A DNA stretch of 63,142 nt, counting the filler, from Candidatus Rokuibacteriota bacterium (lineage in GTDB: Bacteria; JAUVQV01; DATDCY01): assembly GCA_031406795.1 (NCBI GenBank). It is 5 parts of 5 records of this genome, joined end to end, with 100 filler letters (N's around TTAATTAATTAA, not from the genome) between each part and the next. Parts side by side here need not be neighbours in the genome. Positions count along the whole stretch, not along the records: positions 49,826 to 61,504 come from JANOHV010000161.1; 4 more parts are not named here. One strand, given 5' to 3'. A model generated the notes under the pieces. It was not told the DNA's origin, ran no database searches, and saw only the letters and a list, made by a program, of their open reading frames with translations. Shown here piece by piece: positions 13,701 to 61,504 of this stretch. A program made the position numbers and the translations under genes. Within the stretch, counting starts at the first letter, position 1; every line of letters begins with the position of its first letter.

Positions 13701-16700
13701 CCGGCAACCCGAAATCCGCCGCAGGCAGCCCGGCGGCCTGCGCCAGCGAGGCGCAGGAGCGCTCCACCGACTGCAGGAAAGCCAGATGGGTCCGGGTCGT
13801 CGTCTCCTGCCAGGCCAGGTGCGCCTCGGCGGTCTCACGCTGCAATTCTCGATACGCCGCGAGCCAGGTTCCCTCGTCGCCCCGCGACGCGGCTGCCGCC
13901 CCCCCCCCAGCAGCCGGAACGGCAAGCTCGGCGTTCGGCGGCGGCAGGGCCGCAGCGCCGCCCGCGGGCGGATACGGCTTGCCGTAGTTCGTCCCGCAGA
14001 TATCGATGGCGGCCGCGGGGCGGCGCAGTTCCCGCGGGTCCGGCTGGGGCAGAAAGGACTCCCAGAGCGGCGCCAGGTCCAGCTCGTGTCCCGCCGCGTA
14101 GAGAAGCGCGAGGCCGCGGTGAAACGCCGTGGCGGCGTCGCTGCCGCGCGCGTCGAGATTGATCGCGCGATGGGGCCGGCCGGCCAGGATCTTCCCGACG
14201 AGTCCCGTCAGCACCGCCCCGGGTCCGAGTTCGACGAAAGTCCGCGCGCCGAGCGCATACATCGCCTCGATCTGCTCGACGAACCGCACCGGCCGGGCGA
14301 ATTGCGCCGCGAGCAGCCGGCGCATCGAAGCCGGGTCTGCGGGATACGGCGCGGCCTCCGCATTGGAGAAGACGGGGACCGAAGCGGGCCCGAAGGGGAC
14401 CGACGCCAGGTACTGCTCGAAGTCGCCTGCCGCGTCCGCCACCAGCGGCGAATGGAAGGCCGTGGCGACGGGCAGCCGCAGCGACGGCAGCCCCTCGGCC
14501 CGCAGGTGCGTCTCGAACCGGCCGACCGCGTCCGCCGGGCCGGAGATCACGACCTGATCGGGGGCATTGTGGTTGGCAAACGTGACTTCGGGGTGCCCGG
14601 CGAGCAGCGCACGCACCTGCTCGGCGGAGGCCCGCACCGCCGTCATCGCCCCCGGCGTGCGCGCGGCGCCCGCCATCAGCTCGCCTCGGCGCCGGGCCAC
14701 GTCGAGCATCGCCGGCGCGGTGAAGACCCCCGCCGCGTGCAGGGCGACGACTTCGCCGAAGGAGTGCCCGCCGACGCACCCCGGCCGCACTCCCGCGGCG
14801 GAAAGCAGTTTCAACTGCGCCAGGGCCGCGGCGGCGAGGCCCGGCTGGGCCCACTGCGTGAGCCGCAGCCGCTCCTCCTGACGCGAACGCTCCTCGTCGG
14901 TGAACGCCGGCGGCGGGAACACCACCTGCTGCAGCCGCACCGGCCCGGCGATCGGTAGGTCGGCGGCCAGGTCCCACGCGGCCAGGGCCTCCGGCCAGAG
15001 CAGCGCGAGCCCGGTGCCCATCCCGACGTATTGGCTCCCCTGTCCCGCGAACAGGTAGGCCGGATCGCCCGCGGCTGGCCCGACGCCGATGTGGATGCCG
15101 GGCAGATCGATCGGCGCGTCGGGCGCCCGCTCCAGCGCCTCCGCCGCGGCCGCGAGCTTCGCCCTCAGGTCCTCCTCGTCGGCGGCGACGATCGCCAGAC
15201 GCACCCGCGGCACGCCGGCGAGCCCCTGCTGCGTCGCGCGGGCGAGCCAGGGGAGAAAACCGGCGCCGCCGACCTCGAGTTCGCGCAGCTCGCGCGCCAG
15301 ATCCCCGCACGACGCGGCCCCGAAGAGCACCAGCTCGGACGGGGCGACGCGGCGGCGCAGCGCCCGTGGCGCGGGCCCCCGGTACTCCTCGAGCGTCACG
15401 TGGAAGTTGCTGCCGCCGAACCCGAAGGAACTGACGGAGGCGCGCCGCGGGTGATCGCCGCCGCGGACCCAGGGGCGCGCCGCCGTGTTGAGGCAGAACG
15501 GGCTCTCGTCAATGGCGAGTTTCGGGTTCGGGCGGCTGACCTTGATCGTCGGCGGCAGCGCTCCGTGCTGCAGCGCCAGCACCGCCTTGAAGAGGCCCGC
15601 GGCTCCCGCCGCAGCCTTGGTGTGCCCGATCTGCGACTTGACCGAACCGAGCGAACACCACTGCCGGTCGGTCCGTCCCGACTCGTCGAAGACGGCGCGC
15701 AGCGCCTCGAACTCCGCCAGGTCCCCGGCCGTGGTGCCGGTCCCGTGCGCCTCGACCAGTTCGACCGTCTCGGGTCCGTAGCCGGCGGCCGCGTAGGCCC
15801 GCCGCAGGGCCAGCGCCTGCCCCTCGGCGCGCGGGGCGTAGACGCTCTTGGCGCGGCCGTCGGAGGAGCTGCCCAGGCCGCGCAGCACGGCGTAGATGCG
15901 GTCGCCGGCGGCCTCGGCGTCGTCCAGCCGCTTCAGAGCGACCATCGCCAGCCCCTCGCCGAGCAGCGTGCCGTCGGCCTCGTCGGAGAAGGGCCGGCAG
16001 TCGCCGGTGCGCGAGAGCGCGGGCGTCTTGCTGAAGCACAGGTACATGAAGATGTCGTTGAGCGTGTCGACCCCGCCGGTGATCACCAGGTCGGCCTGCC
16101 CGAGCGTCAGCTCGTTCACCGCCATCGACACCGCGGAGAAGGTGCTCGCGCACGCGGCGTCGGTGACGCAGTTGGTACCGCCGAGATCGAAGCGATTGGC
16201 GATGCGCCCGGCCACCACGTTGCCGAGCAGGCCGGGGAACGTGCTCTCCTGCCAGGGGACATAGCTAGCCGCGATCCGGTCGCAGATTCCGGCGACCTGC
16301 GACTCGGGGAGGCCGGCCTCGCGAAGCGCCTTGATCCAGACCGGGCGCTGCAACCGGCTGGCCATCGTGCTGAGCAGCTCCTGCCCCGAAGTGACGCCGA
16401 GGATCACGCCGATGCGCTCGCGCGGGAGCGCGGCGAACTGCCCGCGCGCGGCATCCTCGAGCACGCGCTGCGCCACGATCAGCGCGAGCAGCTGCACGGT
16501 GTCGGTCGCCGGGACGATGCTCGGCGGGACGCCGAAGCCGAGGGTATCGAAGGGCACCGGGTCGAGGAAGGCGCCGCGGCGCGCGTAGGTCTTGTCCGGC
16601 GCAGCCGGGTCCGGGTCGTAGTAGTCGTCGATGAGCCAGTGGCTCGGCGGGACGTCGCGGATCAGATCGCGGCCGGCGAGGATGTCGCGCCAGAACCCGG

Positions 16701-16779
16701 TCTCGTCGACGGAGCCCGGGAACAGCGCGCTGACGCCCACGATCGCGATCGGGACGCGGCGGTCGCGACGCTCGCTCAT
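10729..16779 (-). CDS. pfa2: PUFA-synthase subunit Pfa2 (PfaA-like): KS-MAT-ACPx2-KR-DH
   Basis: Probable ATG at 16779 (MSERRDRRVPIAIVG). KS TDAACAS/EAHGTGT/GHTKAAAG; MAT GHSFGE/AFHS; two ACPs LEADLGIDS(V/I)KR(V/I)EIL; KR GGGRGVT/YAAAN; DH HPFLVDHAIDDVPVLP/LLDGGLQ. About 2016 aa. Confidence 0.94.
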   Translation of the reverse strand: MSERRDRRVPIAIVGVSALFPGSVDETGFWRDILAGRDLIRDVPPSHWLIDDYYDPDPAAPDKTYARRGAFLDPVPFDTLGFGVPPSIVPATDTVQLLALIVAQRVLEDAARGQFAALPRERIGVILGVTSGQELLSTMASRLQRPVWIKALREAGLPESQVAGICDRIAASYVPWQESTFPGLLGNVVAGRIANRFDLGGTNCVTDAACASTFSAVSMAVNELTLGQADLVITGGVDTLNDIFMYLCFSKTPALSRTGDCRPFSDEADGTLLGEGLAMVALKRLDDAEAAGDRIYAVLRGLGSSSDGRAKSVYAPRAEGQALALRRAYAAAGYGPETVELVEAHGTGTTAGDLAEFEALRAVFDESGRTDRQWCSLGSVKSQIGHTKAAAGAAGLFKAVLALQHGALPPTIKVSRPNPKLAIDESPFCLNTAARPWVRGGDHPRRASVSSFGFGGSNFHVTLEEYRGPAPRALRRRVAPSELVLFGAASCGDLARELRELEVGGAGFLPWLARATQQGLAGVPRVRLAIVAADEEDLRAKLAAAAEALERAPDAPIDLPGIHIGVGPAAGDPAYLFAGQGSQYVGMGTGLALLWPEALAAWDLAADLPIAGPVRLQQVVFPPPAFTDEERSRQEERLRLTQWAQPGLAAAALAQLKLLSAAGVRPGCVGGHSFGEVVALHAAGVFTAPAMLDVARRRGELMAGAARTPGAMTAVRASAEQVRALLAGHPEVTFANHNAPDQVVISGPADAVGRFETHLRAEGLPSLRLPVATAFHSPLVADAAGDFEQYLASVPFGPASVPVFSNAEAAPYPADPASMRRLLAAQFARPVRFVEQIEAMYALGARTFVELGPGAVLTGLVGKILAGRPHRAINLDARGSDAATAFHRGLALLYAAGHELDLAPLWESFLPQPDPRELRRPAAAIDICGTNYGKPYPPAGGAAALPPPNAELAVPAAGGGAAAASRGDEGTWLAAYRELQRETAEAHLAWQETTTRTHLAFLQSVERSCASLAQAAGLPAADFGLPAELKPVLHAWSDPSSSGPRCPGASAPAPTVPCAIPETAAAADPSARNVAGILAVLLVVVAEKTGYPVDLLRSEMALEADLGIDSVKRVEILAALEERLPALAQLEPAALSEMRTLGDIVARLEGVGSGGAAPPETLDLAALLLGVVAEKTGYPAELLTLGMGLEADLGIDSIKRIEILSALEERLPGGAQVAPAAVGELRTLGDILDHLRQRESCPGGPAPALLAPSGPAAASTCPGDPAEPRLERFTVETVATPAPGLGLAGLAACRLIHIVGDGGGVARELAARLGTRAIPVEEPPPEAEAVIVLAGLGGDGDANAAGIAVRKVFRAARAVAGAFARRGGVFVTVHDSGGDFGRSGGERAWLAGIAGIAKTAALEWPRASVKTIDLAAGSRSAALLAAAIVAELHEGGSEREVGLTTAGERLTLVSLPRGGEAAQPAAALGEHPVVLAAGGGRGVTAACVIALARETRGRFILLGSTPLLEEPAGLAELRDEVSLTRALAETARASAKALAPSRVAAQARALLAAREVRATLEALRAAGAEGRYVGVDIRDGAALIPALAEARAAFGPITALIHGAGRLADRLIADKTDVQFDLVHETKTGGLRALLDATANDPLRCIALFGSVAGRRGNPGQCDYAAANETLVAAGAREARRRGGGCAVLALDWGPWDGGMVTPALRAHFLALGAGLIPLGAGAAAFAEEALRAAPGFREILIEASPSGVVEGRRRDLEVVVTAASHPFLVDHAIDDVPVLPVVMALEWFARAARAARPGLELTVCRDVRVMQGARLCRYSNGGDPFTVVCRENGDGRMELELRGADGTLHYTAAAEFSGSLPDGDAPPAPAGLERYARATYGVELFHGPQFQVIRAVEGISPEGAVALLDGALAGGWRGSWTTAAALLDGGLQLALLWSGHVIGGRSLPTAVGAYHAYRARWDAGEVCCRLRGTVLGADRVVCDISFVTAGGELVAELRRVELHRRPGFLPTPSLR

Positions 16780-16811
16780 GGGGCACCCCCGCCAGTGGAC
16801 CGGTTCATCGC

Positions 16812-18428
16812 TCAGGCCAGCGGCCGCGGCGCCACGTCGAAAGCGCCTAGGGGAACGGGGACGCCGCAGGCGCGCAGCTGCTGGGCGCGCGCGACCGCGA
16901 TGGCGCCCTCGAGCAGGTTGCGCCCGATCTGGGCCACGGTGCGCCGCGAGGGATCCTCGAGGAACGAGCCGCGCACCCAGTCGTTGAACGCGCCCATCGC
17001 CGGCCCGCACCAGATCTGATAGTCGGCGCGGCGCGCCGGGTCCTCGGCGATGGCCCAACGGCTGGACTGGCCGAGATACCAGCGGAAACACAAGGCCATC
17101 CGGTGCTTCGGGTCGCGGCCCGCGCGCTCGTTCTGGCGCGGGTCGCGCCCCGCCCAGTAACGTTCGGTCTGCTCGATCACCGCCTCGAGCGGCAGCAGGA
17201 AGATCTCCTTCTCCAGGCGCGCGCGCTCGGCCGGGGGAATCTCCTCGATGCGGGCGCAGGATTTATAGAGTTCCCGCAGGCGCCTGGCGCGCGCGGCGAA
17301 GAGCGTGCCGCGCCGCAGGACCTGGACCTGCGCGCCGAGTTCGAACATGTCGGCCGCCGGCGCCATGGCGACATCGGCCACCCCCGCCTGCGCGAGCAGC
17401 GCTCGTCCCGACGCGCCGAGCCCGGACTCCACGGCGGCCTGATTCACTGACCCGGTCAGCACGTAGGCCGCCCCGAGCGCGAACGCCGCGGCGACCGCGG
17501 AGGGGGTGCCGAGCCCGCCGGCGGCGCCGAGGCGCACCTGGCGGCCGTGGCCATGGGTCATCGCAAGCTCGGCAGCCGCGCGGGCGATGCTCGGGAAGAT
17601 CGCTGTCAAGGGCCGGTTGTCCGTGTGTCCGCCGGAATCGGCCTCGACCGTCAGGTCCTCCGCCAGCGGCACGCGCCGCGCAAGCTCCGCCTCTTCCCGC
17701 GTGAGGCGCCCGGCCGCGACGAGCGCGTCGAGCAGCTCCTGCGGGGCCGGCGCGAGAAAGAGGCGCGCCGTCTCGGGACGCGAGATCTTGGCGAAGACGT
17801 GATTCTTCCGCTGCACGCGCCCGGCGGCATCGGCGGTGAGCCCCGAGCAGGCGTACTGCACGACGGGGAGCGTGAGCTTCATGAACGCCGAGGCGGAGAC
17901 GCGGCGCACGCGCCGCCGCAGGTAGACCGCGACGGTCGCGTCCTCGAGCGCCGATTCCTGCGGGGAGTGGATGAGGTTCGACCCCCACGGGCCATCCGGC
18001 CCCAGTTCGCGCGCGAGTTGTGCGACCGCATCTTCGATGTGCGCCGGGTCGAGCCCGGCCGCCCCGAAGAACCCGATGAAGCCGGCGCGCGCCGCCTCGA
18101 CTACCATCGCGACGGTCGTGAGACCGTTCGCCATCTCCCCGACCACGTACGGAAAGCGCAGTCCGTGCGTCTCGCAGAAGGATCGATCCCCCAGCCACTC
18201 GGGGTAGAGGGCGGGGAGCAGCGCGGTTACGGTCGCGTCGATTTCCGCCGCGGGGTCCTCGACCGCGTCTGCGAAGAGGACGCCCGGCCGGTTCCGCCGG
18301 CTATCGAGTACGACGGCAACGGGCTCGCGGGGACTCCCCGCGGCCTTCACGAACGCCGCGGGGGCGAATGCGGCGGGAGCGGTGCGCACCGCGGTGCCCG
18401 CCAGCGGGAGCGTCCCGGTGAAGATCAT
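16812..18428 (-). CDS. pfaD: PfaD-family FMN-dependent enoyl-ACP reductase (Pfa1)
   Basis: LGDRSFCETHGLRFPYVVGEMANG, NLIHSPQE, SASAFM, AKISRPE, TVEADSGGHTDNRP, DMFELG, DYQIWCGPAMGAFN. Confidence 0.95.
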   Translation of the reverse strand: MIFTGTLPLAGTAVRTAPAAFAPAAFVKAAGSPREPVAVVLDSRRNRPGVLFADAVEDPAAEIDATVTALLPALYPEWLGDRSFCETHGLRFPYVVGEMANGLTTVAMVVEAARAGFIGFFGAAGLDPAHIEDAVAQLARELGPDGPWGSNLIHSPQESALEDATVAVYLRRRVRRVSASAFMKLTLPVVQYACSGLTADAAGRVQRKNHVFAKISRPETARLFLAPAPQELLDALVAAGRLTREEAELARRVPLAEDLTVEADSGGHTDNRPLTAIFPSIARAAAELAMTHGHGRQVRLGAAGGLGTPSAVAAAFALGAAYVLTGSVNQAAVESGLGASGRALLAQAGVADVAMAPAADMFELGAQVQVLRRGTLFAARARRLRELYKSCARIEEIPPAERARLEKEIFLLPLEAVIEQTERYWAGRDPRQNERAGRDPKHRMALCFRWYLGQSSRWAIAEDPARRADYQIWCGPAMGAFNDWVRGSFLEDPSRRTVAQIGRNLLEGAIAVARAQQLRACGVPVPLGAFDVAPRPLA

Positions 18429-49825: not shown

Positions 49826-49827
49826 CC

Positions 49828-50235
49828 GAGCCGGGCAACAACGGCAATTTTGGATTCCGGGAGAGTGCGAGCTTCTATGTTTACACTCCGTCAACGAATA
49901 CCAACGAGGGCAATCCGACCGGCACCGACCAGTGGGGTGTCGACGAAACCGGCGTTACGCTGCAGAACAACTACCACCAATTCCCCTGCTCAAAGTGCCA
50001 CGTTCCGCACGCCTCGCGGTTGCCCCGTCTGATGAAGACCAACTGCCTCGACACGAAGAAGAACACCTGGGACAACACGTACCAGCTGAGCGCGGCAACC
50101 GGGAACAACCTGAACAGGAGTATTTCCAACTGGACGAGCGCCCAGAACTGTCACCGCTTGGGCGGTGAAGACCCCGCCGATGTCGGGGACAGCGCCGGAA
50201 CGGGCGCTGGCTGGAACAACGTAACCCCGTGGTAG
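49828..50235 (+). CDS. C-terminal 135 aa of a c-type cytochrome, probably a large Geobacter-type multiheme protein (5'-truncated)
   Basis: The frame is open from the contig start: ...NNYHQFPCSKCHVPHASRLPRLMKTNCLD-...-AQNCHRLGG...GWNNVTPW-stop. CXXCH at 49987-50001. Confidence 0.8.
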   Translation, partial: EPGNNGNFGFRESASFYVYTPSTNTNEGNPTGTDQWGVDETGVTLQNNYHQFPCSKCHVPHASRLPRLMKTNCLDTKKNTWDNTYQLSAATGNNLNRSISNWTSAQNCHRLGGEDPADVGDSAGTGAGWNNVTPW

Positions 50236-50263
50236 CACGAGCGGTATTACAGGGCGGGAGGAG

Positions 50264-52636
50264 ATGAACATGAGCGGGATGAAATGGTTCAGGCAGGTGG
50301 CGGCTGCCGGCGTCTTCCTGCTCGGTACCGCGGGTGTCGGGTCGGCGAAGCCGATTCTGCAGGAGGATTTCAGCACCCAGGTCCCGGGCATGAAGGGCGG
50401 GGAGATTGTTCCCCATGACAAGGGATTTGCGTATCAGGGACCCGGGGGCCACAACCTCACCAAGGGATCGTACATCGAGTACGATCTCAAGGATGTGGCC
50501 TTCAGCCCATCGGCCGGAACGATCGAGTTCGATCTTACCCGTGCTGAAGTCAGCCAGGCGGAGGCGCTCGTTTCATTCGCAGACGAGGGCGGCGAAAGAG
50601 CTTTCGCCCTCTACATCGATTGGGAGCGTCTGACCGAAGAGATTCTTCTCCGACCGATGACTCCCGGGTTCTCCTATTGGCTGACACCGGAGAAGGATGA
50701 ATTCGGCAACAATGCCCCGAAGCCATGGGCGGTCGTCAACAGGAATATCGGCAAGGGGACAACCGTCCACGTCGTCATGACCTGGGACGCTAACGGCATT
50801 GATCTCTACGTTGACGGGAAGAGTCTCGCAGGAAAACCGAGCAACGGGCCCAAGTTGATTGAGAAGTTGAAGACTGCCAGGAAATTCATTGTCGGGGCAG
50901 ACATATCGCGAAAGATTCCCGGGGGCGCCTGGTCGCAGACCAGGTCACTCGTGAGCAATGTGCAGCTTCATGACAAGAAGCTCGTAACCTCCGAGTTCGC
51001 CCAGACCATCGTCCCGAAGGGTCTGAACGTTTACGGCGTCAACCACGATGCCGCGACCGTTGCCGGGTTTTCAGGGAAGCTCGTCGCTGGGAATACGGTC
51101 AACGTTGTACTCCACGGCACACCCGGTGCCGCCGGCACCTTCGATCTCGTGCACTACCCCGATGTCGGCTCCAAGATCGACGTCGACTGGAGGGGATGGG
51201 GCGTCTATCTCGAGGAGAAGGCGTTCTTTGAGGAGGGCGAAGTCAATCTGCGCGACGTCGAGGCGTACGAGGTCTACGTAGCACAGGCTCCGTTCGATTA
51301 TGCCGCCCCGGGGATGGAGCCGGTCGCCAAGCTCGAGGTCAGGGAGCAGCGGTACATTTTCGAGGCCCCCGAGGTCGACAAGCCCTCCTACATTGCGGTT
51401 GTCGCGCTGATGCGCGACGGGACCAGGCTGCCGGTGATCGCGCCGATCGCCAATCAGCCGCTGACCGAATCCGAGCCCGGCGTCTACACGGGCTCATACC
51501 GGGTCGGGTGGAAGGACCGCTATCCGCGCGCCATCGCGATCGGTCGTCTTGCCGTTGGAACGAATGCCGCTTCGCTGCTCGCCTCGGGCACGTTTGCCCT
51601 CGACCCTTCGGTCACGCTTGCCGTTGCCACCGACCCCAGCGAGCTCAAGGCGGATGAGAAGTCGGCTGCCCAGGTCACGGTCACCGTCACCGACGTCAAC
51701 GGAAATGCCGTTACCGATCACGAAGTGAAATTCCTGCTCTTCACCACGTCTCAGTACACCGGCGTGGTCGGGGGTGGCGCCTTCGCGGATCAGGTTGGCG
51801 CCACGGTTACGGAAGAGCGCTTCGGCAAGACCGACATTTTCGGCAAGGTGACCGCGACCTACGTCGCGGGCTTCGCGGCGAAGACCGCGGTCATCGTCGC
51901 GCGCGACATGCTCACCAACAACACCGGGTCCGGGTGGGTGAAGACCTACATCACGGCGACGGCCCAGCTCGAACTCGAGCCGGTCATCGAGAATGCCGCG
52001 ATGGCCCAGGGGTACGAGATCACCGTGACCTCGAGCGACGAGTGGCTGACCGCCGACGGGAAGAGCACCGCCCGGATCAGCGCTCGCGTGACGCTCGGCG
52101 GGGAGGCAGTCCCGGGGCACACGGTCGCCTTCAGCGTCGCGTCCGGCACCGGCTCCGTCCGGGTCGTCGAGGGCACGACTGACAAAAACGGTGAGGCCCG
52201 CGCGGTGTACACGGCCGGCAAGAAGATCGGCATGGTGCTGATCACGGCGACCGACACCACCGCCGGCATCAGCGGGTCCGTCCAGATCGAGCTGCGCAGC
52301 GACGCGCCAGCCAAGATCGCGATCAAGCTCGAACCGAAGAAGCTCCCGGCGGACGGGCGCAGCCGGGCCGCCCTGACGGTTACGGTGACCGACATCAACG
52401 ACAACCCGAACGACGGCGTCGAAGTCGAGTACGCCATCGTGGAGGGGAGCGGCAGCATTCGCGACGAAAAGGGCCTGACGGATCGCAGCGGCGAGGACGA
52501 GACGCAGTACACCGCCGGCAGGACGCCGGGCCGCGTCTCCATCGAGATCACCGTACGCTCCACGGTCCCGACACCGGAGGAGCTCGCTCAGGTGAACGAG
52601 ATGGCACTCGCGGTCACGGATTTCAAGTTCTTCTAG
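50264..52636 (+). CDS. Secreted surface protein: LamG-like domain plus three bacterial Ig-like (Big_1/invasin) domains
   Basis: Signal peptide; GTIEF...HVVMTWDANGIDLYVDGK; repeats LKADEKSAAQVTVTVTDVNGN, LTADGKSTARISARVT and LPADGRSRAALTVTVTDINDNP. GGAGGAG RBS; the start may be 50270. Confidence 0.8.
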   Translation: MNMSGMKWFRQVAAAGVFLLGTAGVGSAKPILQEDFSTQVPGMKGGEIVPHDKGFAYQGPGGHNLTKGSYIEYDLKDVAFSPSAGTIEFDLTRAEVSQAEALVSFADEGGERAFALYIDWERLTEEILLRPMTPGFSYWLTPEKDEFGNNAPKPWAVVNRNIGKGTTVHVVMTWDANGIDLYVDGKSLAGKPSNGPKLIEKLKTARKFIVGADISRKIPGGAWSQTRSLVSNVQLHDKKLVTSEFAQTIVPKGLNVYGVNHDAATVAGFSGKLVAGNTVNVVLHGTPGAAGTFDLVHYPDVGSKIDVDWRGWGVYLEEKAFFEEGEVNLRDVEAYEVYVAQAPFDYAAPGMEPVAKLEVREQRYIFEAPEVDKPSYIAVVALMRDGTRLPVIAPIANQPLTESEPGVYTGSYRVGWKDRYPRAIAIGRLAVGTNAASLLASGTFALDPSVTLAVATDPSELKADEKSAAQVTVTVTDVNGNAVTDHEVKFLLFTTSQYTGVVGGGAFADQVGATVTEERFGKTDIFGKVTATYVAGFAAKTAVIVARDMLTNNTGSGWVKTYITATAQLELEPVIENAAMAQGYEITVTSSDEWLTADGKSTARISARVTLGGEAVPGHTVAFSVASGTGSVRVVEGTTDKNGEARAVYTAGKKIGMVLITATDTTAGISGSVQIELRSDAPAKIAIKLEPKKLPADGRSRAALTVTVTDINDNPNDGVEVEYAIVEGSGSIRDEKGLTDRSGEDETQYTAGRTPGRVSIEITVRSTVPTPEELAQVNEMALAVTDFKFF

Positions 52637-52696
52637 GGCACGCGGCACGGCACAAGACGTTCGAAGCGACGTGAATATCATCGAAAGGGGGCGGAC

Positions 52697-52759
52697 ATGA
52701 AGAAAGTCAAGTACACGAAGCCGATGGTGGTGAAGGGGTCCAGCGTCCATCCCTGCTGA
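52697..52759 (+). CDS. 20-aa peptide MKKVKYTKPMVVKGSSVHPC, candidate RiPP precursor
   Basis: AAAGGGGG RBS ending 5 nt before the ATG; GC3-rich codons; YxxP leader-type motif; terminal His-Pro-Cys; followed by a strong terminator. Below the ORF-track length cut-off. Confidence 0.75.
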   Translation: MKKVKYTKPMVVKGSSVHPC

Positions 52760-52779
52760 TTCCCTGGTCACGGGTGTCG

Positions 52780-52819
52780 CGGGCCGGCTGGTTGTCAACC
52801 TGCCGGCCCGTCTTTTTTT
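52780..52819 (+). terminator. Rho-independent terminator
   Basis: CGGGCCGGC-tGGTTGtCAACCt-GCCGGCCCG followed by TCTTTTTTT. Confidence 0.88.
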
Positions 52820-52881
52820 GACGTCGAATTGCAGTTGACGCGAGTCAATCGAGGATCTCCCCGAAGCGCCGGTGCGGTATC

Positions 52882-53937
52882 ATGCCAGCCGGGAATGAGA
52901 GGGTGCGGATGAAGCGTGGCGAAGACGGCGGGGCCGTCTCGAACCGGGGAGTTGTTGAGGCGCTTCGTTCGATTCGTCTGACCCTCCTGTTGCTTTTCAC
53001 GGTGGCCGCGCTCTCGGCTGCGGCGACGATTGCCGGGCCGCGCCTGGAGAAAACCGCTCCCGTGGTCCGTGCCGCTGGACGGTTCCTCGGCCTCGCCGAC
53101 CCGTGGCACAGCCCGCTTTTTCTGCTCCTTGTCGGACTGCTGGTGGCGAATGTCACTTTGTGTTCCTGGCATCGGTATCGCCGCCTGGTGCGCAACCCTG
53201 CGGCAAAGCGCGGCGCGATAGCCGCGCTGGATGCCGCGGTCCATTTTTCCCTGGTCGTGATCGTTTTCGGCGGGGTCGGCAAGGGGCTTTGGGGAGTCGT
53301 GGGCACGGGCTATCTTTTTCCGGGAACTGCTGCGACCACCATGTATGTCGAGGGCACCGACAGCGACCTCCCTCTCGGGTTTTCGGTTCTGCTGAAGGAG
53401 AAGCGTGAAACCTTCTACCCGCTCCGGATAAAGGTCGGGGTGCGCGACGCGGCAACCGGCGAAAAGATTGCACTTCTCGAAGTTGTCGAGGGGCGAAGCG
53501 TCTCTCTGCCCGGCGGACGGCTCACGCTGTCAGTGCGGGAGGTGCGGCCCGATTCAACTGCCGCGGTGCTGCTCCTGCGCACGCAGGAAGGGGAAGCACC
53601 GGTGACCCTGCCGTTGGTCGCGGGGGGAGATCCGATGACTGCCGGGGCTTTCCTGCTCGCGGCGGTTGCCTGGCGCCGTGACGTCAAGGACGTTCGGGGC
53701 CGGGTTGAAATGAGCGAGGGAGAGCAGGTGGTTGGAGAGGGGTGGCTTGAAGTCAACGGGGCGCTCTCGCACAAGGGAACCACGCTCTTTCTGACCTCGT
53801 GGGGCGCCGACGAGTTCGGCAATCAATTTCTCGGGGTGCAGTACCGGCGAGACCCCGCCGCTCCCGTATTCTGGGCAGGCGCCATCCTCTTCGCGCTGGC
53901 TCTCCCCCCCTTCGTGTTGCTGAGGCGTCGCCGCTGA
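52882..53937 (+). CDS. resB: ResB/CcsB-like cytochrome c biogenesis (System II) protein
   Basis: LRSIRLTLLLL TM1; LGLADPWHSPLF...NVTLCS TM2; conserved His in AVHFSLVVIVFGG; periplasmic beta domain; GVQYRRDPAAPVFWAG last TM. The start may be 52909. Confidence 0.78.
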   Translation: MPAGNERVRMKRGEDGGAVSNRGVVEALRSIRLTLLLLFTVAALSAAATIAGPRLEKTAPVVRAAGRFLGLADPWHSPLFLLLVGLLVANVTLCSWHRYRRLVRNPAAKRGAIAALDAAVHFSLVVIVFGGVGKGLWGVVGTGYLFPGTAATTMYVEGTDSDLPLGFSVLLKEKRETFYPLRIKVGVRDAATGEKIALLEVVEGRSVSLPGGRLTLSVREVRPDSTAAVLLLRTQEGEAPVTLPLVAGGDPMTAGAFLLAAVAWRRDVKDVRGRVEMSEGEQVVGEGWLEVNGALSHKGTTLFLTSWGADEFGNQFLGVQYRRDPAAPVFWAGAILFALALPPFVLLRRRR

Positions 53938-53960
53938 CATCTGGAAGGTTGCCGATCTGT

Positions 53961-54089
53961 TATCACTGCAGCAGGTGATTTTGGCTTTACTCGGTCATTC
54001 CCGCGAATGCGGGAATCCAGGAACCGTGAAAATGCCCTGGATTCCCGATTAGTACCTCGGGAATGGCGGGAAGGTCTGCTGTAGTGTTA
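53961..54089. repeat. MITE-like element with a GTCATTCCCGCG..GCGGGAATCCAG palindrome
   Basis: Imperfect 14-bp terminal inverted repeats TATCACTGCAGCAG / CTGCTGTAGTGTTA enclose the ATTCCCGCGAATGCGGGAAT and TTCCCGA..TCGGGAA hairpins; lies between convergent genes. Confidence 0.7.
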
Positions 54090-55808
54090 TGGCTCAAGCA
54101 TGATAGGGCCGGGCAATCGCTCCAGCCGCTCACGCGCCTGCTGGAGGCCGGGCTTGAGTTCGAGCGCCCTGCGATACGCACCGGCAGCCTCCGGGATCCT
54201 CCCCTGGAGAGCCAGCACGTCCCCGAAGTTCGCATGGATTTCCGCCATTGCGGGGGCGATCTCCAGGGCGCGCCTCAGGTACGTCTCGGCTTCCGCGTAC
54301 CGCCCGAGCGCCGTGAGATCGACGCCGAGATTGTTCAGGGGCTGAGGGTTCCCCGGCTCCTGGCGCGCCGCGGCGCGGTATTCCAGCAGGGCCTGCTCCA
54401 GACGTCCCTGCCCCGAGAGCGCGAGCCCGAGGCTGTTGCGCGCGCCGGGGTAACGGGGGCGAAGCGCGAGCACGCGGCCGTAATGCGCCTCGGCCTTCGC
54501 GAAATCACCTCGGAGCCTCAGGATGTCCCCCAGGATCTGGTGCGCAAGGTAATTGTCGGCTGTCACCGCGAGCGTGTGCTCGAAGAGCGATGTGCCGCTG
54601 CGCCAGTGGGCGAGCTGACGGGACGTCGCCAGGGGGGCGGCCACGACCACGAACGCAGCCGCACACCCGATGACCGGCCGGAGCCTCGGGAAGAGCCGAA
54701 CCACGTCCCGCGCCCCCCACGCCGCCGCGAGGAAGATGCCGATCAGCGGCAGATAGGTGTACCGATCCGCGCGCGCTTGGGAGCCGACTTGCAAAAGGCC
54801 GATCACCGGCAGCAGGGTCGCCAGGTACCAGAGCCACCCCGTTGCCAGATACGGACACTGTCGCGCCAGGCGCACGACCACCGCCGAAACGGCTCCTACG
54901 ACGGCCAGCGCGGCTGCCGCGTCCGCCAGCGTCAGGGCGTGCACGGGATACGGATAGAAGACCGCCAGGCCGGCGGGCCAGATCGTCTTGCCGAGATAGA
55001 CGACATAGGACGAGATGGCGTTCACGAGGCTCGCAGAGAGCATGGCCTTCCGGAACGGCGCGGCGACCCTGTCGAAGTCCTCGAAAGCGAAGGCGCCGCT
55101 CTGGGTCTTCAGGGTCAGGTACCCCGCCGCCAGCGCAAGCGCGAGCAGGGGGAGTTTCTCCCGGAGCAGGTAGGCCATGTCCCGCAGTCGCCGCCCGCGG
55201 AGTCGCCCGAGCGGCCAGTAGTCGAGCAGCAGGCAGGCGAAGGGAAAGGTGACCACCATCGGCTTGGACATCAGGCCGAGCCCGAAAAGCGCGACCACGG
55301 CCAGCATCCTGCCGCGGCGGGGTTGCCGGACGTAGGCGAGATAGGCCGCCATGGCCGCCATCCAGAAGAAGGCGGCGAGGACGTCCTTGCGTTCGGCGAC
55401 CCAGGCCACCGATTCCACGTGCAGGGGGTGCAGCAGGAAAAGGAAGGCAGTGAATGCACTTGGCCAGACCGCACCGGTCATGCCGGCGAGGGTGAGGAAG
55501 AGGATGGTTCCGGAGGCCACGTGGAGCAGGACGCTCGTCAGGTGATGGCCGCCGGCCCAGCCGCCCCAGATCTGGGCGTCCAGCTGGTGCGACCACCAGG
55601 TGACCGGATGCCAGTTGCCGCCGTCGGTGGCGGTGAGCGACCAGCGAAAGCTCCCGACGGAGACGCCGTCCACTGCCTGCCGGTTGCCCGTGACGTAGAC
55701 GTGGTCGTCATAGGGAAGAAACTCGTGACCGGTGACGGGAACGAAGACCAGCAGCGCGGCAGCAGCAAGGATCACCGCGAGACCCGTTCGCACGCTCGCG
55801 CCGCTCAC
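54087..55808 (-). CDS. TMTC-like GT-C membrane glycosyltransferase with C-terminal TPRs
   Basis: YDDHVYV, NWHPVTWWSHQLD, HPLHVESVAWVAERKD, ADRYTYLP, TPRs; probable GTG start at 55808. Confidence 0.85.
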   Translation of the reverse strand: MSGASVRTGLAVILAAAALLVFVPVTGHEFLPYDDHVYVTGNRQAVDGVSVGSFRWSLTATDGGNWHPVTWWSHQLDAQIWGGWAGGHHLTSVLLHVASGTILFLTLAGMTGAVWPSAFTAFLFLLHPLHVESVAWVAERKDVLAAFFWMAAMAAYLAYVRQPRRGRMLAVVALFGLGLMSKPMVVTFPFACLLLDYWPLGRLRGRRLRDMAYLLREKLPLLALALAAGYLTLKTQSGAFAFEDFDRVAAPFRKAMLSASLVNAISSYVVYLGKTIWPAGLAVFYPYPVHALTLADAAAALAVVGAVSAVVVRLARQCPYLATGWLWYLATLLPVIGLLQVGSQARADRYTYLPLIGIFLAAAWGARDVVRLFPRLRPVIGCAAAFVVVAAPLATSRQLAHWRSGTSLFEHTLAVTADNYLAHQILGDILRLRGDFAKAEAHYGRVLALRPRYPGARNSLGLALSGQGRLEQALLEYRAAARQEPGNPQPLNNLGVDLTALGRYAEAETYLRRALEIAPAMAEIHANFGDVLALQGRIPEAAGAYRRALELKPGLQQARERLERLPGPIMLEP

Positions 55809-55852
55809 CCCGTCGTCTCCACAAGGGATTCTTCTCACATGGTCGGGAATTG

Positions 55853-58132
55853 TCAAGGCTCGGCGAGATCCGCGCCGAGGGCCGCCAATTCCGCGGCGAT
55901 GACGTCCTTGCCGGATGCGGCGTACGCCGCCGTGAGAGCGGCCCGGGCCTCGGGAAAGCGTCCGAACTGGCGCAACGCCTTGCCGTGAAGATACCAGGCG
56001 AAGTGACCGGGCGGGGTCCCGTCGGCCCAACGCCCGAGGCCGCCGAGGATGTGCTCCTCCCACAGCAGCGGCTCGGCGCGTATGCTCATCGCGCCGAGGT
56101 AGGCCTGCGCGGCTTCCTCGAAGCGGCCGGCATCGAAGAGCGCGGCGGCAAGGCCGATCTTCAGGTCGCGGGCCTCGGGAAGCAGCGACGATGCCTGCAG
56201 CAGCCTGGCCGCGGCAACCGGTCCTCTTCCGAATTCCAGCGCCGCGAGTCCCAGATAGTACTCCGCGTCCGCTGCGTCGAAATAGCGGCCGATCCTGGCG
56301 GCGAAGGGCGCCTCGCCGGTCAGAACGGCCAGAGCGGCCAGCACCTGCGGGTCGCCGGGGCTCCGGGAGAGAGCGTCCCGGAGCAAGCCGACTGCGCCCG
56401 TCTCGTCCCCGCGGCGAGCGGCGATCAGGGCCAGCCAGTAGACGGGGTCGGCCACGCGCTGGCGCCTGCGCAGGAGGCGGGCGCCCCCGGCCTCCAGTCC
56501 CGACAACAGTGCTTCCGCCTCATCGAGGCGCTTGGCGTCGAGCAACAGCAACGCGCGGTCGAGGCGAGCGGTCGGGCTGTCCGGCCGGGTCTGCCGCACC
56601 AGCGCCTCGGCACGGGCAGCGAGCCATGTTCCCTGAACGGGCAGGCGTTCCGGCCGGGAGCCGCCGTGAAATGCCCAGGGCGCCAGCGCCAGGGCCCCGG
56701 CATGAGCCTCGGCGGCCTCGGGGAGCCGGCCCTGATCGCGCAGTTCGAGTGTGCGCTCGACGGCTGCAGGGAGAGAGCTTGCCGCGGCCATCGTCTCCTC
56801 GTCGTCCCGGGTGAGACCGTTGCCCAGCGACAGAGCGACAACCAGCAGGGCGACGATCATCGACCATTTCAGCCGGGCGTGGTGCCTCAGGATCCCCTGG
56901 AGGCCGATGGCGGCAAAGAAGCAGAGAAAGGGCCAGAGGGAGAGACGTTGCCGCTCTGAAGCGTAGGTGGCGGCCATGGTGAAGAGCTGCAGGCCGAAGC
57001 CCGCATAAGCGATCAGGCCGGTTCGCCAGCAGTTTCGCCAGAGAAGGAGACCGGCAAGGGCCAGCGCAGCCACCGGCGCCGCCGGCACCGGCGTCGGCAG
57101 CCTCGCGGTGATCATCCGGTCGGCAAGCCACGCCACCCGCAGGTCGTGCCAGCGGTGGGAGTGAAAGGCGAAAAACACCTTGCGAACCACCGCCCCCGCC
57201 CAGATACCAGGATTGTCGGATGCGAAGGCCAGCGCTTTGGCGGCCCACCAGGAATTCGTCTCGCCTCTGGTGAGTTCCCGTCCCTCACTTCTGCCGGCCG
57301 CGAGGCGATAGAGGGCGTGCTGGTAGTCGCTCTGTTCGGGAAAATCGTCCGTCAGGGCGACGACGAGCTCCGGGTATTCCGCCCTCACCCCCTCGGAGAG
57401 CGGGTTGTTGCCGTCGTAGAAGACCGTCCCCGGGTTCATCGTCGAAATCGAGGGGGGGGCCGGTGCGAGCGCGAGAGTAAACGCCGCCCACACGAAGGCG
57501 AAGGCGGCGAGGAAGGCGCCGGAGACGCGGAGGGCGTCTTTCCTGCCGGGGGCGAGCCCGACGGCGGCGGGGAGAACGGCGAGCAGCGGCCAGAATCCCG
57601 GCCTCGTCAGAACGCACAGCGCGAGCGCGACCCCGGCAGCGGCGAAGGACGGCGTGCCGCTGTTTCCCGCGAAGAGCAGCAGAAGCGCGATCCAGAGGAC
57701 CATGAGCGCCTCCGGCTCGAACACGTAGGCATGCGCGATGAGACCCGGATACAGGGCGAGCGCCGCCGCCCCGAACAAAGCCGCGAGTGCGCTCGTGTGC
57801 CGGCGCAGCGCCAGGTAGAGCGCGCCGGTCGCGACCGCAACGCAGGCGCACTGGATTCGCACGAGCGCAAGGAAGGGGTCGGAGGCGTGGGTGTTGAGCC
57901 AGACGCAGAGACGCAAGTAGAGGGGGCTGAAATCAAGGGCGCGCTCGGCACCGAGCTTTCCCGCGGCGAATTGTTCGGCGGCCAGCGGGTACTTGGAGAA
58001 ATTCCCCAGGCTCTCCCGCAAGCCGGACAAGAGAAAATGATACAGCAGAAACGTGAACGCCGTGAGAACGGCCGCGATCAGCAGTTCGCCGTGGGATCGG
58101 CGTTGACCCTCGCCGTGGTCAACCGTGTTCAA
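55853..58132 (-). CDS. ArnT/PMT-like GT-C membrane glycosyltransferase with TPR-like C-terminus
   Basis: Multiple TM helices; DFSPLY, EPEAL, LTRP, FYDGNNP motifs; helical repeat tail; TTG start. Confidence 0.65.
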   Translation of the reverse strand: MNTVDHGEGQRRSHGELLIAAVLTAFTFLLYHFLLSGLRESLGNFSKYPLAAEQFAAGKLGAERALDFSPLYLRLCVWLNTHASDPFLALVRIQCACVAVATGALYLALRRHTSALAALFGAAALALYPGLIAHAYVFEPEALMVLWIALLLLFAGNSGTPSFAAAGVALALCVLTRPGFWPLLAVLPAAVGLAPGRKDALRVSGAFLAAFAFVWAAFTLALAPAPPSISTMNPGTVFYDGNNPLSEGVRAEYPELVVALTDDFPEQSDYQHALYRLAAGRSEGRELTRGETNSWWAAKALAFASDNPGIWAGAVVRKVFFAFHSHRWHDLRVAWLADRMITARLPTPVPAAPVAALALAGLLLWRNCWRTGLIAYAGFGLQLFTMAATYASERQRLSLWPFLCFFAAIGLQGILRHHARLKWSMIVALLVVALSLGNGLTRDDEETMAAASSLPAAVERTLELRDQGRLPEAAEAHAGALALAPWAFHGGSRPERLPVQGTWLAARAEALVRQTRPDSPTARLDRALLLLDAKRLDEAEALLSGLEAGGARLLRRRQRVADPVYWLALIAARRGDETGAVGLLRDALSRSPGDPQVLAALAVLTGEAPFAARIGRYFDAADAEYYLGLAALEFGRGPVAAARLLQASSLLPEARDLKIGLAAALFDAGRFEEAAQAYLGAMSIRAEPLLWEEHILGGLGRWADGTPPGHFAWYLHGKALRQFGRFPEARAALTAAYAASGKDVIAAELAALGADLAEP

Positions 58133-58384
58133 GGGCTCAAGAAAGAATCACGAGAGCCGGCCTACAGAACCCACCATTTTGTCAACATAGGAACGAACCA
58201 GGGTGATGTCAAGAATCAAATCTCTGCCCCAAATCCGCGCGTCACGCGCGGATGAGTGTCCCACGTGATCCTTGATCTGAACCAATCCAGCCGTGCGTAA
58301 GCAACACACCGGTTTTCAAGAGGTTAATTGTTCGCTGTGCTACTGCTACAATTCACCGATGGGCGCTGTAATTCAATTCGCGCG

Positions 58385-60118
58385 ATGAGGGCTCGCCGGA
58401 CCCCAGTGCGTGAGGGATCGGAGCAATCTGCCGCGACGAGCCACCGTGCGCGAGCGGCGGGGGCCGTGATCGCGCTGACGCTGGTCCTCATTGCCGTGGC
58501 GGCGTTTCTGCCCGTGCGGCTCAACGGTTTCATCCTTTTCGACGACCCGGCGTACATCACCCGCAATGAGCACGTGGCCGGGGGGGTGACGGCCGCGGGT
58601 CTGGTCTGGGCGTTCACCAGCGCCGCCTCGGATAACTGGCACCCGCTGACGTGGCTGTCCCACATGCTCGACGTCTCGCTGTTCGGCATGAGCCCCGCGG
58701 CCCACCACCTCACGAGCTTGCTGCTGCACGCGCTCAGCGGCGCCTTGCTCTTCCTCGTCCTCGCCGGCATGACCGGCCGGCTCTGGCGCAGCGCCGCAGT
58801 GGCCGCCCTCTTTGCGGTGCACCCGCTCCACGTCGAATCGGTGGCCTGGGCCGCGGAGCGGAAGGATGTGCTGAGCGGCCTCTTCTGGGTGCTCACGATG
58901 GGCAGCTACCTGCGCTATGCCCGCCGTCCCGGTGCGGGACGGTACGCCGCCGTTGTCGCGTCCTTCGCCCTCGGCTTGCTGACGAAGCAGATGCTGGTCA
59001 CGCTGCCGGTGGTGCTCCTGCTTCTCGATTGGTGGCCGCTGGGAAGATTCGCTCCGGGCCGCCAGGGCGCCCCGTTCCCCGGCAGCCGCACCCCGGGCCG
59101 CCTGATCGTCGAAAAGATCCCGCTGCTTGCGCTCTCGGGTGCGGCCGGTGCCGCGGTCTTTCTTGTGCAACGGCAGTCGGGCGCCGTGAAGAACTTCGAT
59201 CTCATCCCGTTGGTCCCTCGGGTGTTCAACGCGATCGTCTCCTACGCCGGCTACCTGGGCAAGATGGCGTGGCCCTTCGACCTGTCGCTGCTCTATCCGC
59301 ACCCCGGGCCAGGACTCTCTCTCGTCGCCGTCTTTATCTCGCTGGGCGCGCTGCTGGCCGTGTCCCTCGCCGCGCGTGCCACGGCGCAGGAGCGTCCCTG
59401 GCTGGTCGTCGGCTGGCTCTGGTACCTCGTGACGCTGCTGCCGGTGAGCGGCATCGTCCAGGTGGGCTGGCAGTCGATGGCGGACCGTTACACGTATCTC
59501 CCGCTGATCGGCATTTTTCTGATGCTCGCCTGGGAGGCCGGCGAGCGAGCCGCCACCAGACGCGCCAGGCAGGTCCTGTCAGCGGGGGTGCTGCTGCTGC
59601 TCGCCGGTCTTGGCGCGCTGACCTGGAGGCAGACCTTGTTCTGGCACGACAGCGTCAGCGTCTTCGCGCGCGCGGTGGCGGTGACCTCCGACAACGTGAT
59701 GGCGGAGTATCTTCTGGGCAAGGCTCAGCGGATTGCGGGAAACCCCGCCGAGGCGATCTCTCATCTGCGGGAGGCGATCCGGATCAATCCCCGCTTTCCG
59801 CCCAGCTTCGCCGAAATAGCGCCGCTGCTCTTCGAACGCGGCGACGCCGAAGGGGCGATCCGCGCCTACGAGCGGTACCTGCAGCTGGAACCGGAGAGCG
59901 CGTCGATTCACAACAATCTCGGCTATGCGCTGGCTCGGCTGGGGCGGCCCGAGCGGGCGCTCAAGCACTTCGATGCCGCGCTGCGGATCGATCCGCTCTA
60001 CGCACGGGCGCGGGTGAACGCTGCGGAGTCGCTCGCCGCCCTCGGCCGTGACGCGGAGGCCGCGGAGCAGATGCGCCTGGCCCTGGAGACCGACCGCACG
60101 CTTCGCCGCCTCCCTTGA
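58385..60118 (+). CDS. TMTC-like GT-C membrane glycosyltransferase with C-terminal TPRs
   Basis: FDDPAYI, NWHPLTWLSHMLD, HPLHVESVAWAAERKD, ADRYTYLP, TPRs. Confidence 0.87.
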   Translation: MRARRTPVREGSEQSAATSHRARAAGAVIALTLVLIAVAAFLPVRLNGFILFDDPAYITRNEHVAGGVTAAGLVWAFTSAASDNWHPLTWLSHMLDVSLFGMSPAAHHLTSLLLHALSGALLFLVLAGMTGRLWRSAAVAALFAVHPLHVESVAWAAERKDVLSGLFWVLTMGSYLRYARRPGAGRYAAVVASFALGLLTKQMLVTLPVVLLLLDWWPLGRFAPGRQGAPFPGSRTPGRLIVEKIPLLALSGAAGAAVFLVQRQSGAVKNFDLIPLVPRVFNAIVSYAGYLGKMAWPFDLSLLYPHPGPGLSLVAVFISLGALLAVSLAARATAQERPWLVVGWLWYLVTLLPVSGIVQVGWQSMADRYTYLPLIGIFLMLAWEAGERAATRRARQVLSAGVLLLLAGLGALTWRQTLFWHDSVSVFARAVAVTSDNVMAEYLLGKAQRIAGNPAEAISHLREAIRINPRFPPSFAEIAPLLFERGDAEGAIRAYERYLQLEPESASIHNNLGYALARLGRPERALKHFDAALRIDPLYARARVNAAESLAALGRDAEAAEQMRLALETDRTLRRLP

Positions 60119-60228
60119 CTTTGGTCGCCGGTACCCCGAAAATCCTCCCGCCGGGCGGTCCGGAAGGACTGCCGGGGGGGCGCCGTCTCGAGGGGGAGAA
60201 GGACATTCCTGGGGGAGTCAGGGGGCGC

Positions 60229-61504
60229 ATGCGTCCGGCTGCACGAGACGGAAAGCGCGCTGGGTCTCCCGGTGCCCTGTCTGCGGCAGGACGGGGGACC
60301 GGTCGCTCCCTCCTGATGTGTCTGCTGCTCATGTGCCTGACCTGGGCCGCTTTCTCCCCGTCGCTTCAGAACGGCTTTGTGGCGCTGGACGACAACGAAT
60401 ACCTTGTTCAGAATCCCGCCGTCCAAAAGGGGCTCACGACCCGGAGTGTCGCGTGGGCCTTCACGACCTTTCACTCGGCGAACTGGCATCCGCTGACGTG
60501 GCTGTCGCACCTGCTCGATGTGGAGCTGTTCGGGCTGGTACCCGCCGGTCACCACGCCATGAGCCTGGCGCTTCATGCGGCGAACGCCTCCCTGCTGTTT
60601 CTCCTGGTGCGCGACCTGACCGGCATGTTTTGGGGTGGCGCATTCGTTGCGGCGCTTTTTGCGGTCCATCCGCTGCATGTCGAGTCCGTCGCCTGGGCTG
60701 CGGAGCGCAAGGATCTGCTCTCGATGTTCTTTGCGCTGACCGCGACGATCGCCTATCTCCGGCAGCTCCGGCGTCGAGGGCCGCACCGGGCGTGGCTTGT
60801 CCCGCTGCTCTTCGCGTGCTCGCTGCTGGCCAAGCAGATGATGATAACGCTGCCGTTGTTGCTGCTGCTCCTAGACTGGTGGGCGCTGGGACGATGGCGC
60901 CCGGGCGGCACGGCCCCGGGACGCGACCGGTCGTGGCGGGATTGCCTCCCGGCGGTGGCGCTGTGGCGGGAGAAGGCGGCTCTTGTTCTGCTGACGCTCG
61001 GAGCGGCAGCGATCACCTACCGCGTTCACGAGATCGGGGGTGCGCTCGCCGAGCGCCTCCCGCTGGCGCAGCGGCTTGCCAACGCTCTGTGCGCGTACCG
61101 CGGTTATCTGGTGAAGATGTTCTGGCCGAGCGACCTTGCGCCCTTCTATCCCTACCCGGTCATGACGCCCGCCTTTGCTCTCGACGCCGCGCTCTCTCTG
61201 GTGCTCTTGGCCGGTTTGACCATGTTCGTCGTGCGCGGCGCCCGCGCCCGCCCCTCTCTGGCCGTCGGCTGGTTCTGGTACCTGGGCAGCCTCGTTCCGG
61301 TCATCGGTATTGTCCAGATCGGCGCCCAGGCGATGGCCGATCGCTATACCTACTGGGCCCTGACGGGGCTGTTCCTCGCGCTGGCCACCGGACTTGCGAC
61401 GGCGTGGCCCAGGTTCCCCCGGCTGCGGCTGGCCTCGGTCGTACTGGCGATCGGCGTCACGCTGCTGCTCGCTGGTCTGTCCCGCCGGCAGGTGCGTCAC
61501 TGGA
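60229..61504 (+). CDS. TMTC-like GT-C membrane glycosyltransferase (3'-truncated)
   Basis: LDDNEYL, NWHPLTWLSHLLD, HPLHVESVAWAAERKD, ADRYTY; runs into the spacer. Confidence 0.85.

Follow-up and report, generated by a model that had tools for sequence, protein, structure and literature searches.

Short peptides ending in His-Pro-Cys as the probable precursor of the GeoRSP radical SAM/SPASM system

Several described systems are close to the peptide gene analysed here. PqqA, the precursor for PQQ, and MftA, the precursor for mycofactocin, are likewise short and RRE-dependent, end in a very small invariant core and are matured by a SPASM enzyme, and pqqA often occurs in multiple copies. Lasso peptides share the YxxP leader and require an acidic (Asp/Glu) ring acceptor and a longer core. 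For the GeoRSP system, curated models exist for a PqqD chaperone (TIGR04302), a radical SAM/SPASM enzyme (TIGR04303) and a SPASM protein (TIGR04304), with none for a substrate, and since no substrate was known the system could not be assayed. In the His-containing triceptides, the SPASM enzymes HaaB, YhhB and ScaB form His(i)-to-C-beta(i+2) links within an aromatic(i)-X-X(i+2) layout, and in the thio(seleno)oxazole RiPPs SbtA/SbtM (TIGR04081/TIGR04082) the radical SAM enzyme SbtM oxidises Cys or Sec in a small peptide, according to PMC11002830.

We analysed a 63,142-nucleotide stretch of DNA (the window) from a Candidatus Rokuibacteriota genome (GCA_031406795.1, here G000), made of several contigs joined by N spacers, with the peptide gene on contig C43 (window 49826-61504). 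The features discussed below, the last of them outside the window, are as follows.

52684..52691, + strand: Shine-Dalgarno sequence AAAGGGGG, read directly, with a 5-base spacer before the ATG
52697..52759, + strand: gene for a 20-residue candidate precursor peptide, with a Lys-rich leader containing YxxP and an invariant C-terminal His-Pro-Cys
52779..52819, + strand: intrinsic terminator, stem 52779-52811, then seven T (52813-52819)
49828..50235, + strand: 3' end of a multi-heme c-type cytochrome gene, truncated at the contig start and containing one CxxCH
50264..52636, + strand: 790-residue exported LamG and Big_1/invasin-domain protein (Pfam Big_1 E 3e-25, LamG E 4e-7)
52882..53937, + strand: ResB-like cytochrome c maturation protein (Pfam ResB E 1.8e-12), downstream of the terminator
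G000:C84:1310-2281: TIGR04303 radical SAM/SPASM enzyme (455.3 bits, cut-off 400)

The 20-codon ORF, its ribosome-binding site and its terminator are real. The original prediction had described this arrangement with a host-like GC3, and the sequence bears it out: the ORF runs from the ATG at 52697 through 20 codons to a TGA at 52757-52759, its GC3 is 0.90 against a genome GC of 67%, and a 66-base stretch downstream of it folds at -33 kcal/mol (z -4.19, equalled by none of 200 shuffles). A small hairpin lies at 52763-52774, just past the TGA. The peptide-gene terminator was absent from the output of a simple terminator scanner; among the matches listed, the 80 bases past the stop codon give z < -2 in 95 of 123 homologues. 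A purine-rich ribosome-binding site is visible before the homologues by inspection rather than by an independent count, and a tally of 118/125 among those listed is circular and carries no weight. The ORF is not a product of chance, because a paralogue exists on contig C116 and the homologues keep their amino acids while the codons and all three stops vary.

That paralogue was recovered by a six-frame phmmer search of the genome at E 7e-6, with the next match at E 3.9, and adjoins 4Fe-4S, carboxypeptidase-regulatory-like, U32 and permease genes. A degenerate pattern fixing His-Pro-Cys, run on genome contigs, found at least 128 loci holding 137 distinct motif matches. From the matches listed we kept 125 peptides in 115 loci and dropped 12; 11 of the 12 look like chance, and L074 is a true member removed by the ribosome-binding-site filter, with the enzyme nearby too. 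The original prediction had hinged on conserved homologues, and more than 125 were found besides the paralogue, in Geobacteraceae, Nitrospirota and other groups. Most named records among the matches listed belong to Geobacteraceae, Desulfuromonadaceae, Nitrospirota and other Deltaproteobacteria, and genomes carry several copies each. Across the 125 peptides listed, length is 19-20 residues in 114, Gly stands at -8 in 120 and Val at -4 in 118; codons differ even at fixed residues, and the stops divide into 79 TGA, 32 TAA and 14 TAG.

Since this first pattern had fixed His-Pro-Cys, we ran a second one on metagenome contigs that fixed the first 13 codons only and left the C-terminus free. Of its matches, 74 of 75 (69 of 70 distinct) end Val-His-Pro-Cys-stop. 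The exception, L276, is a 19-residue ORF with a Trp/Phe-rich end, either chance or another RRE substrate. The core had been proposed as SSVHPC; the invariant part is Val-His-Pro-Cys, and the two Ser positions vary. The Tyr and Pro of YxxP were fixed by the search patterns, yet they also occur in the first homologues, which were found without a pattern. Some copies depart from the common form: L254 (G452:C4:153744-153797), a second copy, has lost the Pro of YxxP and kept Val-His-Pro-Cys-stop, and a second Cys at position -5 occurs in 17 of the 125 copies listed. Five copies of this Cys(-5) variant sit on one Nitrospirae contig (L041 8365-12465 and L043), interleaved with carboxypeptidase-regulatory-like genes. 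Four candidate occurrences were set aside: weak matches in G029, inside a 692-residue frame, in G180 (E 0.009), which resembles the C-terminal half and has neither YxxP nor stop, and in G458 (E 0.047), after viewing, and a single viral pattern match due to chance, with in-frame stops and no start.

The peptides form an uncatalogued family ending in His-Pro-Cys. No Pfam or NCBIfam model matches the peptide of the window, no precursor model in NCBIfam 20.0 matches it, and for 47 of the 70 aligned members the best Pfam and NCBIfam values were E 0.13 and 0.22, in one member each. The geopeptide model TIGR04229 is similar in length (22 positions), yet matches neither G000 copy; its best score in the genome was 11.2 bits, at unrelated places, against a threshold of 30 bits. 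A lasso precursor was likewise rejected, as one of the 47 members matches NF033528 at E 0.22, no acidic ring residue is conserved and, unlike in lasso peptides, the core is far too short. An exact look-up of ten members among about 15 billion proteins found none, which a length floor in that collection could explain. We found no description of the family or of its link to GeoRSP in the open literature, a scope that excludes subscription papers. The terms 'VHPC', 'GeoRSP' and TIGR04302/04303 are absent from one supplement file each of PMC10288494 and PMC12710340, whose large datasets may be incomplete there.

A search of the genome bin for RRE and SPASM proteins, as the original prediction had advised, found a GeoRSP cassette on contig C84, where the gene row reads beta-helix, PqqD, radical SAM/SPASM, SPASM protein, with the three GeoRSP genes in their usual order. 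The adjoining PqqD protein has TIGR04302 as its best family at 86.5 bits, under the cut-off of 100, and the adjoining SPASM protein has TIGR04304 at 60.2 bits, under its cut-off of 300. This system extends well past Geobacter, and some cassettes (L080, L083, L119) lack the SPASM gene. Conserved in 42 enzyme sequences are the radical SAM triad, seven cysteines of the SPASM type and a further stretch, His-Asn-x-Lys-Cys. The closest solved structure to the enzyme is PqqE (E 1.4e-15), the mycofactocin profile scores it at 167 bits, and the GeoRSP PqqD protein resembles lasso-type RREs (PDB 9x90, E 1e-4; TbiB1, E 0.02). Both G000 peptide copies lie on contigs other than that of the cassette. In G001, a YedE apparently fused to a beta-helix protein (743 residues, L218:10484-12715) stands directly before PqqD, and its G000 counterparts fall at the ends of contigs C31 and C84.

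Peptide and enzyme occur together across genomes. In 543 genomes, whose members include non-independent kin so that no weight is given to Fisher P values, both are present in 32, the peptide alone in 3, the enzyme alone in 4 and neither in 504; a radical SAM partner, on whose presence in carrier genomes the prediction had depended, is found in these 32. The total combines 41 relatives, searched with the single peptide as query (6, 0, 1 and 34 in the same order), with 301 genomes from the phylum of G041 (16, 1, 3 and 281) and 201 from the phylum of G042 (10, 2, 0 and 189), in both of which a 70-row peptide profile and TIGR04303 were applied to the same genomes. The set centres G000, G041 (holding L107, a Geobacter record) and G042 (holding L110, a Nitrospirae record) are positive by construction, and completeness is unreported for the two large sets. 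The enzyme is present in 6 of 6 genomes of the phylum of G000 and the peptide in 5 of 6; among the 35 other genomes of the relatives set, G012 alone has the peptide and G012 alone has the enzyme. The enzyme-only genomes are G001 (78% complete), G167 (peptide cut by a contig end) and the drafts G197 and G302, and the peptide occurs without the enzyme, at E 1e-70, in G327, G365 and G508, draft assemblies of unreported completeness. Position beside the enzyme is stronger evidence than co-occurrence: eight double-positive genomes, 7 of the 16 and 1 of the 10, have the start of the peptide 33-143 bases past the enzyme match. The enzyme is present in 8 of the 69 long-flank loci among the matches listed, and PqqD at the edge of a ninth. 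The link between PqqD and radical SAM/SPASM cassettes and tiny peptides, noted for Geobacter in the original prediction, is supported by the cassette in the same genome, by co-occurrence in several phyla and by frequent adjacency.

G000 also has a second RRE/radical SAM cassette (C262:2043-4550, L017), with a PqqD-like protein, a radical SAM/SPASM enzyme, a 56-residue Cys-containing peptide with a YxKP leader and a 308-residue gene; no NCBIfam family exceeds its cut-off there and the 56-residue peptide has no model. The presence of this RRE/radical SAM pair would allow the His-Pro-Cys peptide to be modified by such a partner instead, an option we rate as the most remote of those considered, because the C262 cassette has its own adjoining YxKP-leader peptide and both co-occurrence and adjacency across genomes point to TIGR04303. 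The peptide is very probably an RRE-bound precursor for GeoRSP, acting in trans and modified at His-Pro-Cys. The initial reading as a RiPP precursor is supported by the cassette, the co-occurrence, the side-by-side genes and the RRE motif in the leader; its assignment of YxxP as a PqqD/RRE recognition sequence agrees with PMC12710340, where YxxP or W/Y/LxxP is the sequence recognised by lasso and PqqD RREs.

On contig C43 the genes run from the cytochrome tail through the LamG/Big_1 gene, 60 bases upstream of the peptide gene, to the peptide, its terminator, the resB-like gene and opposite-strand membrane and TPR genes. The same LamG/Big_1 gene precedes the peptide in the relatives G002, G003 and G005; in two of them, G002 and G005, the peptide is likewise followed by resB. 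The cytochrome piece is 42% identical to the C-terminus of a cytochrome of at least 2492 residues and 36 CxxCH motifs that has the same position in L088. We found no sigma-70-like site between the LamG/Big_1 gene and the peptide gene; this suggests that the peptide is the last cistron of, and probably closes, a giant multi-heme cytochrome operon, as it often does in other genomes. The terminator had been thought to give an excess of precursor over downstream enzymes. A resB-like gene rather than maturases comes next, which makes closing the cytochrome operon a likelier role for the terminator than fixing a ratio of precursor to enzyme. The window holds no maturase, as was correctly stated, an absence made uninformative by its being joined from contigs.

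Other observations concern the wider genome. The start of C43 (window 49826-50097) is 93% identical to the end of C251 (G000:C251:4307-4578), which encodes a cytochrome of at least 1526 residues with 16 CxxCH motifs, a paralogue or strain variant of the C43 cytochrome gene. Giant cytochromes with 70 and 26 CxxCH motifs lie on G000:C156:1-16571, and 48 ORFs in the genome have at least three such motifs. Elsewhere in the window, contig C34 carries PfaA/PfaBC/PfaD-like iterative polyketide or polyunsaturated fatty acid synthase genes (3041-18428, - strand), whose 2663-residue protein has an acyltransferase domain at its end, and two short repeats (1108-1267 and 4915-5039) recur at 82-97% identity across many of the genome's contigs.

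A short ORF with a conserved Pro-containing C-terminal motif and a terminator soon after its stop might also be a cis-acting leader or ribosome-arrest peptide that governs read-through of the terminator, and in 62 of the 79 copies among the matches listed a gene on the same strand comes next. However, the following gene is on the opposite strand in 16 of these 79, downstream genes are highly varied, and such a role would leave the N-terminal YxxP and the tie to an RRE and radical SAM enzyme unexplained. We regard it as very improbable.

The neighbour table across homologues, which the original prediction had proposed, shows multi-heme cytochrome, ResB-like and radical SAM/SPASM genes recurring near the peptide. 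Among the matches listed, the 69 long-flank loci (in which L041 and L043 are one contig) include multi-heme cytochromes in 34, PhnD-like binding proteins in 20, OpuAC-like proteins in 17, TPR proteins and ResB in 15 each, YedE and an SO_0444-like permease in 13 each, and NikR/CbiM/CbiQ in 5, these metal-uptake genes adjoining the peptide in four Nitrospirota contigs. NosD-like beta-helix and carboxypeptidase-regulatory-like proteins recur beside the peptide in the same loci. TIGR01904, a model of CxxxxCH/CxxCH cytochromes, matches 20 of the 20 genomes with peptide or enzyme in the 301-genome set against 13 of the 281 others. From coordinates, no more than about 5 kb separates the enzyme from a YedE-type gene (TIGR04112) in 17 of 19 enzyme-bearing genomes; YedE is common in that set (134/301), the full-length copies of these 19 genomes score 293-420 bits, below most others, and the selenium link of TIGR04112 is by model name only. 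Peptide, enzyme and associated genes could all be co-inherited as one island.

Such surroundings raise the prospect that the peptide stays unmodified and is a small accessory protein to the cytochrome island, binding metal or heme or acting as a partner of a cytochrome. It would then be co-inherited with GeoRSP, and the true GeoRSP substrate would be, say, heme or a protein. The direct upstream neighbour in the 79 copies listed is a multi-heme gene in 21, a giant non-heme protein in 10 and the GeoRSP enzyme in only 4, and the best non-self profiles of the enzyme (homologue L082) are heme-pathway ones (NirJ2 202 bits, AhbD 182), both of which would suit this explanation. The peptide nevertheless has no export signal and does have an RRE-type YxxP leader; the RRE of the cassette is left with no other candidate substrate, and those 13 genomes have CxxxxCH cytochromes with neither peptide nor enzyme. 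A more specific role, in which the peptide would supply an axial His from outside to under-liganded hemes, was rejected: spare His outnumber Cys-His motifs in 29 of 29 large cytochromes counted, at 1.06-1.83 per motif, so that these proteins need no outside His ligand. Overall, we consider an unmodified accessory protein improbable.

If the peptide is instead the GeoRSP precursor, the PqqD-type protein, as the RRE, would bind the leader at YxxP and the following hydrophobic strand and present the C-terminal His-Pro-Cys to the radical SAM/SPASM enzyme; the leader would comprise about residues 1-13, with His-Pro-Cys as the reactive core. By analogy with the triceptides, whose layout with His and whose SPASM enzyme His-Pro-Cys and GeoRSP share, we tentatively place first a His(i)-to-Cys(i+2) cross-link giving a three-residue ring. 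The bond itself is a prediction; unlike in triceptides, the motif is single, at the extreme C-terminus and with a Cys partner, and the best 25 profiles for the enzyme include no triceptide-forming family. A possible but somewhat less favoured chemistry, again by analogy, would act on the terminal Cys, by oxidative decarboxylation or by an oxidation that yields an enethiol or thio-oxazole-like group; decarboxylation is supported by the stop directly after Cys and by the MftC/AhbD/BlsE-type decarboxylases among the profiles and structures related to the enzyme. Some other change to the core seems unlikely. Unlike SbtM, the GeoRSP enzyme scores only 82 bits against the cut-off of 350, and the Cys/Sec interchange seen in SbtA has no counterpart, as no Sec variant was found and 74 of the 75 leader-pattern matches have Cys and then a stop. 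Selenocysteine read-through of the TGA was rejected, with all three stops in use and no His-Pro-stop variant in those 75. According to PMC10288494, StsB is closest to MftC yet makes sactionines, and full-length similarity is no guide to radical SAM chemistry.

After modification, general proteases would release a small product; no dedicated protease is among the recurrent neighbours annotated. We give an even chance to this product being a small sulfur- and imidazole-bearing metal ligand or redox cofactor for the extracellular multi-heme cytochrome apparatus, a role consistent with the neighbours, with the copy number and with how little the core varies. The linked YedE-type transporter and solute-binding proteins might move it, and its supply might scale with the additional peptide genes that close cytochrome operons. 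The product's role is the weakest step of this proposal, and it may be a signal. Unlike PqqA and MftA, the peptide has a His-Pro-Cys core and neighbours that are envelope, transport and cytochrome genes, and the recurrent neighbours annotated (20 proteins per scan) include no conspicuous PqqB/PqqC- or MftE-like genes. A bolder and doubtful version would make the His-Pro-Cys tail the source of a new peptide-derived cofactor in the manner of PQQ and mycofactocin, a sulfur-rich Ni/Cu ligand or redox mediator, perhaps with extra sulfur supplied through YedE, that is exported and loaded onto giant extracellular cytochrome assemblies. It draws on the nesting of the system in genomes with CxxxxCH cytochromes, the adjacent YedE core and the NikR-CbiM-CbiQ genes beside the peptide.

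In summary, a 20-residue candidate substrate with an invariant His-Pro-Cys end makes GeoRSP testable and may well reveal radical SAM chemistry that is new for a C-terminal Cys. The peptide is tightly associated with giant multi-heme cytochromes in Geobacteraceae, in Nitrospirota and in uncultured phyla, which suggests that extracellular electron transfer involves a small molecule so far overlooked.
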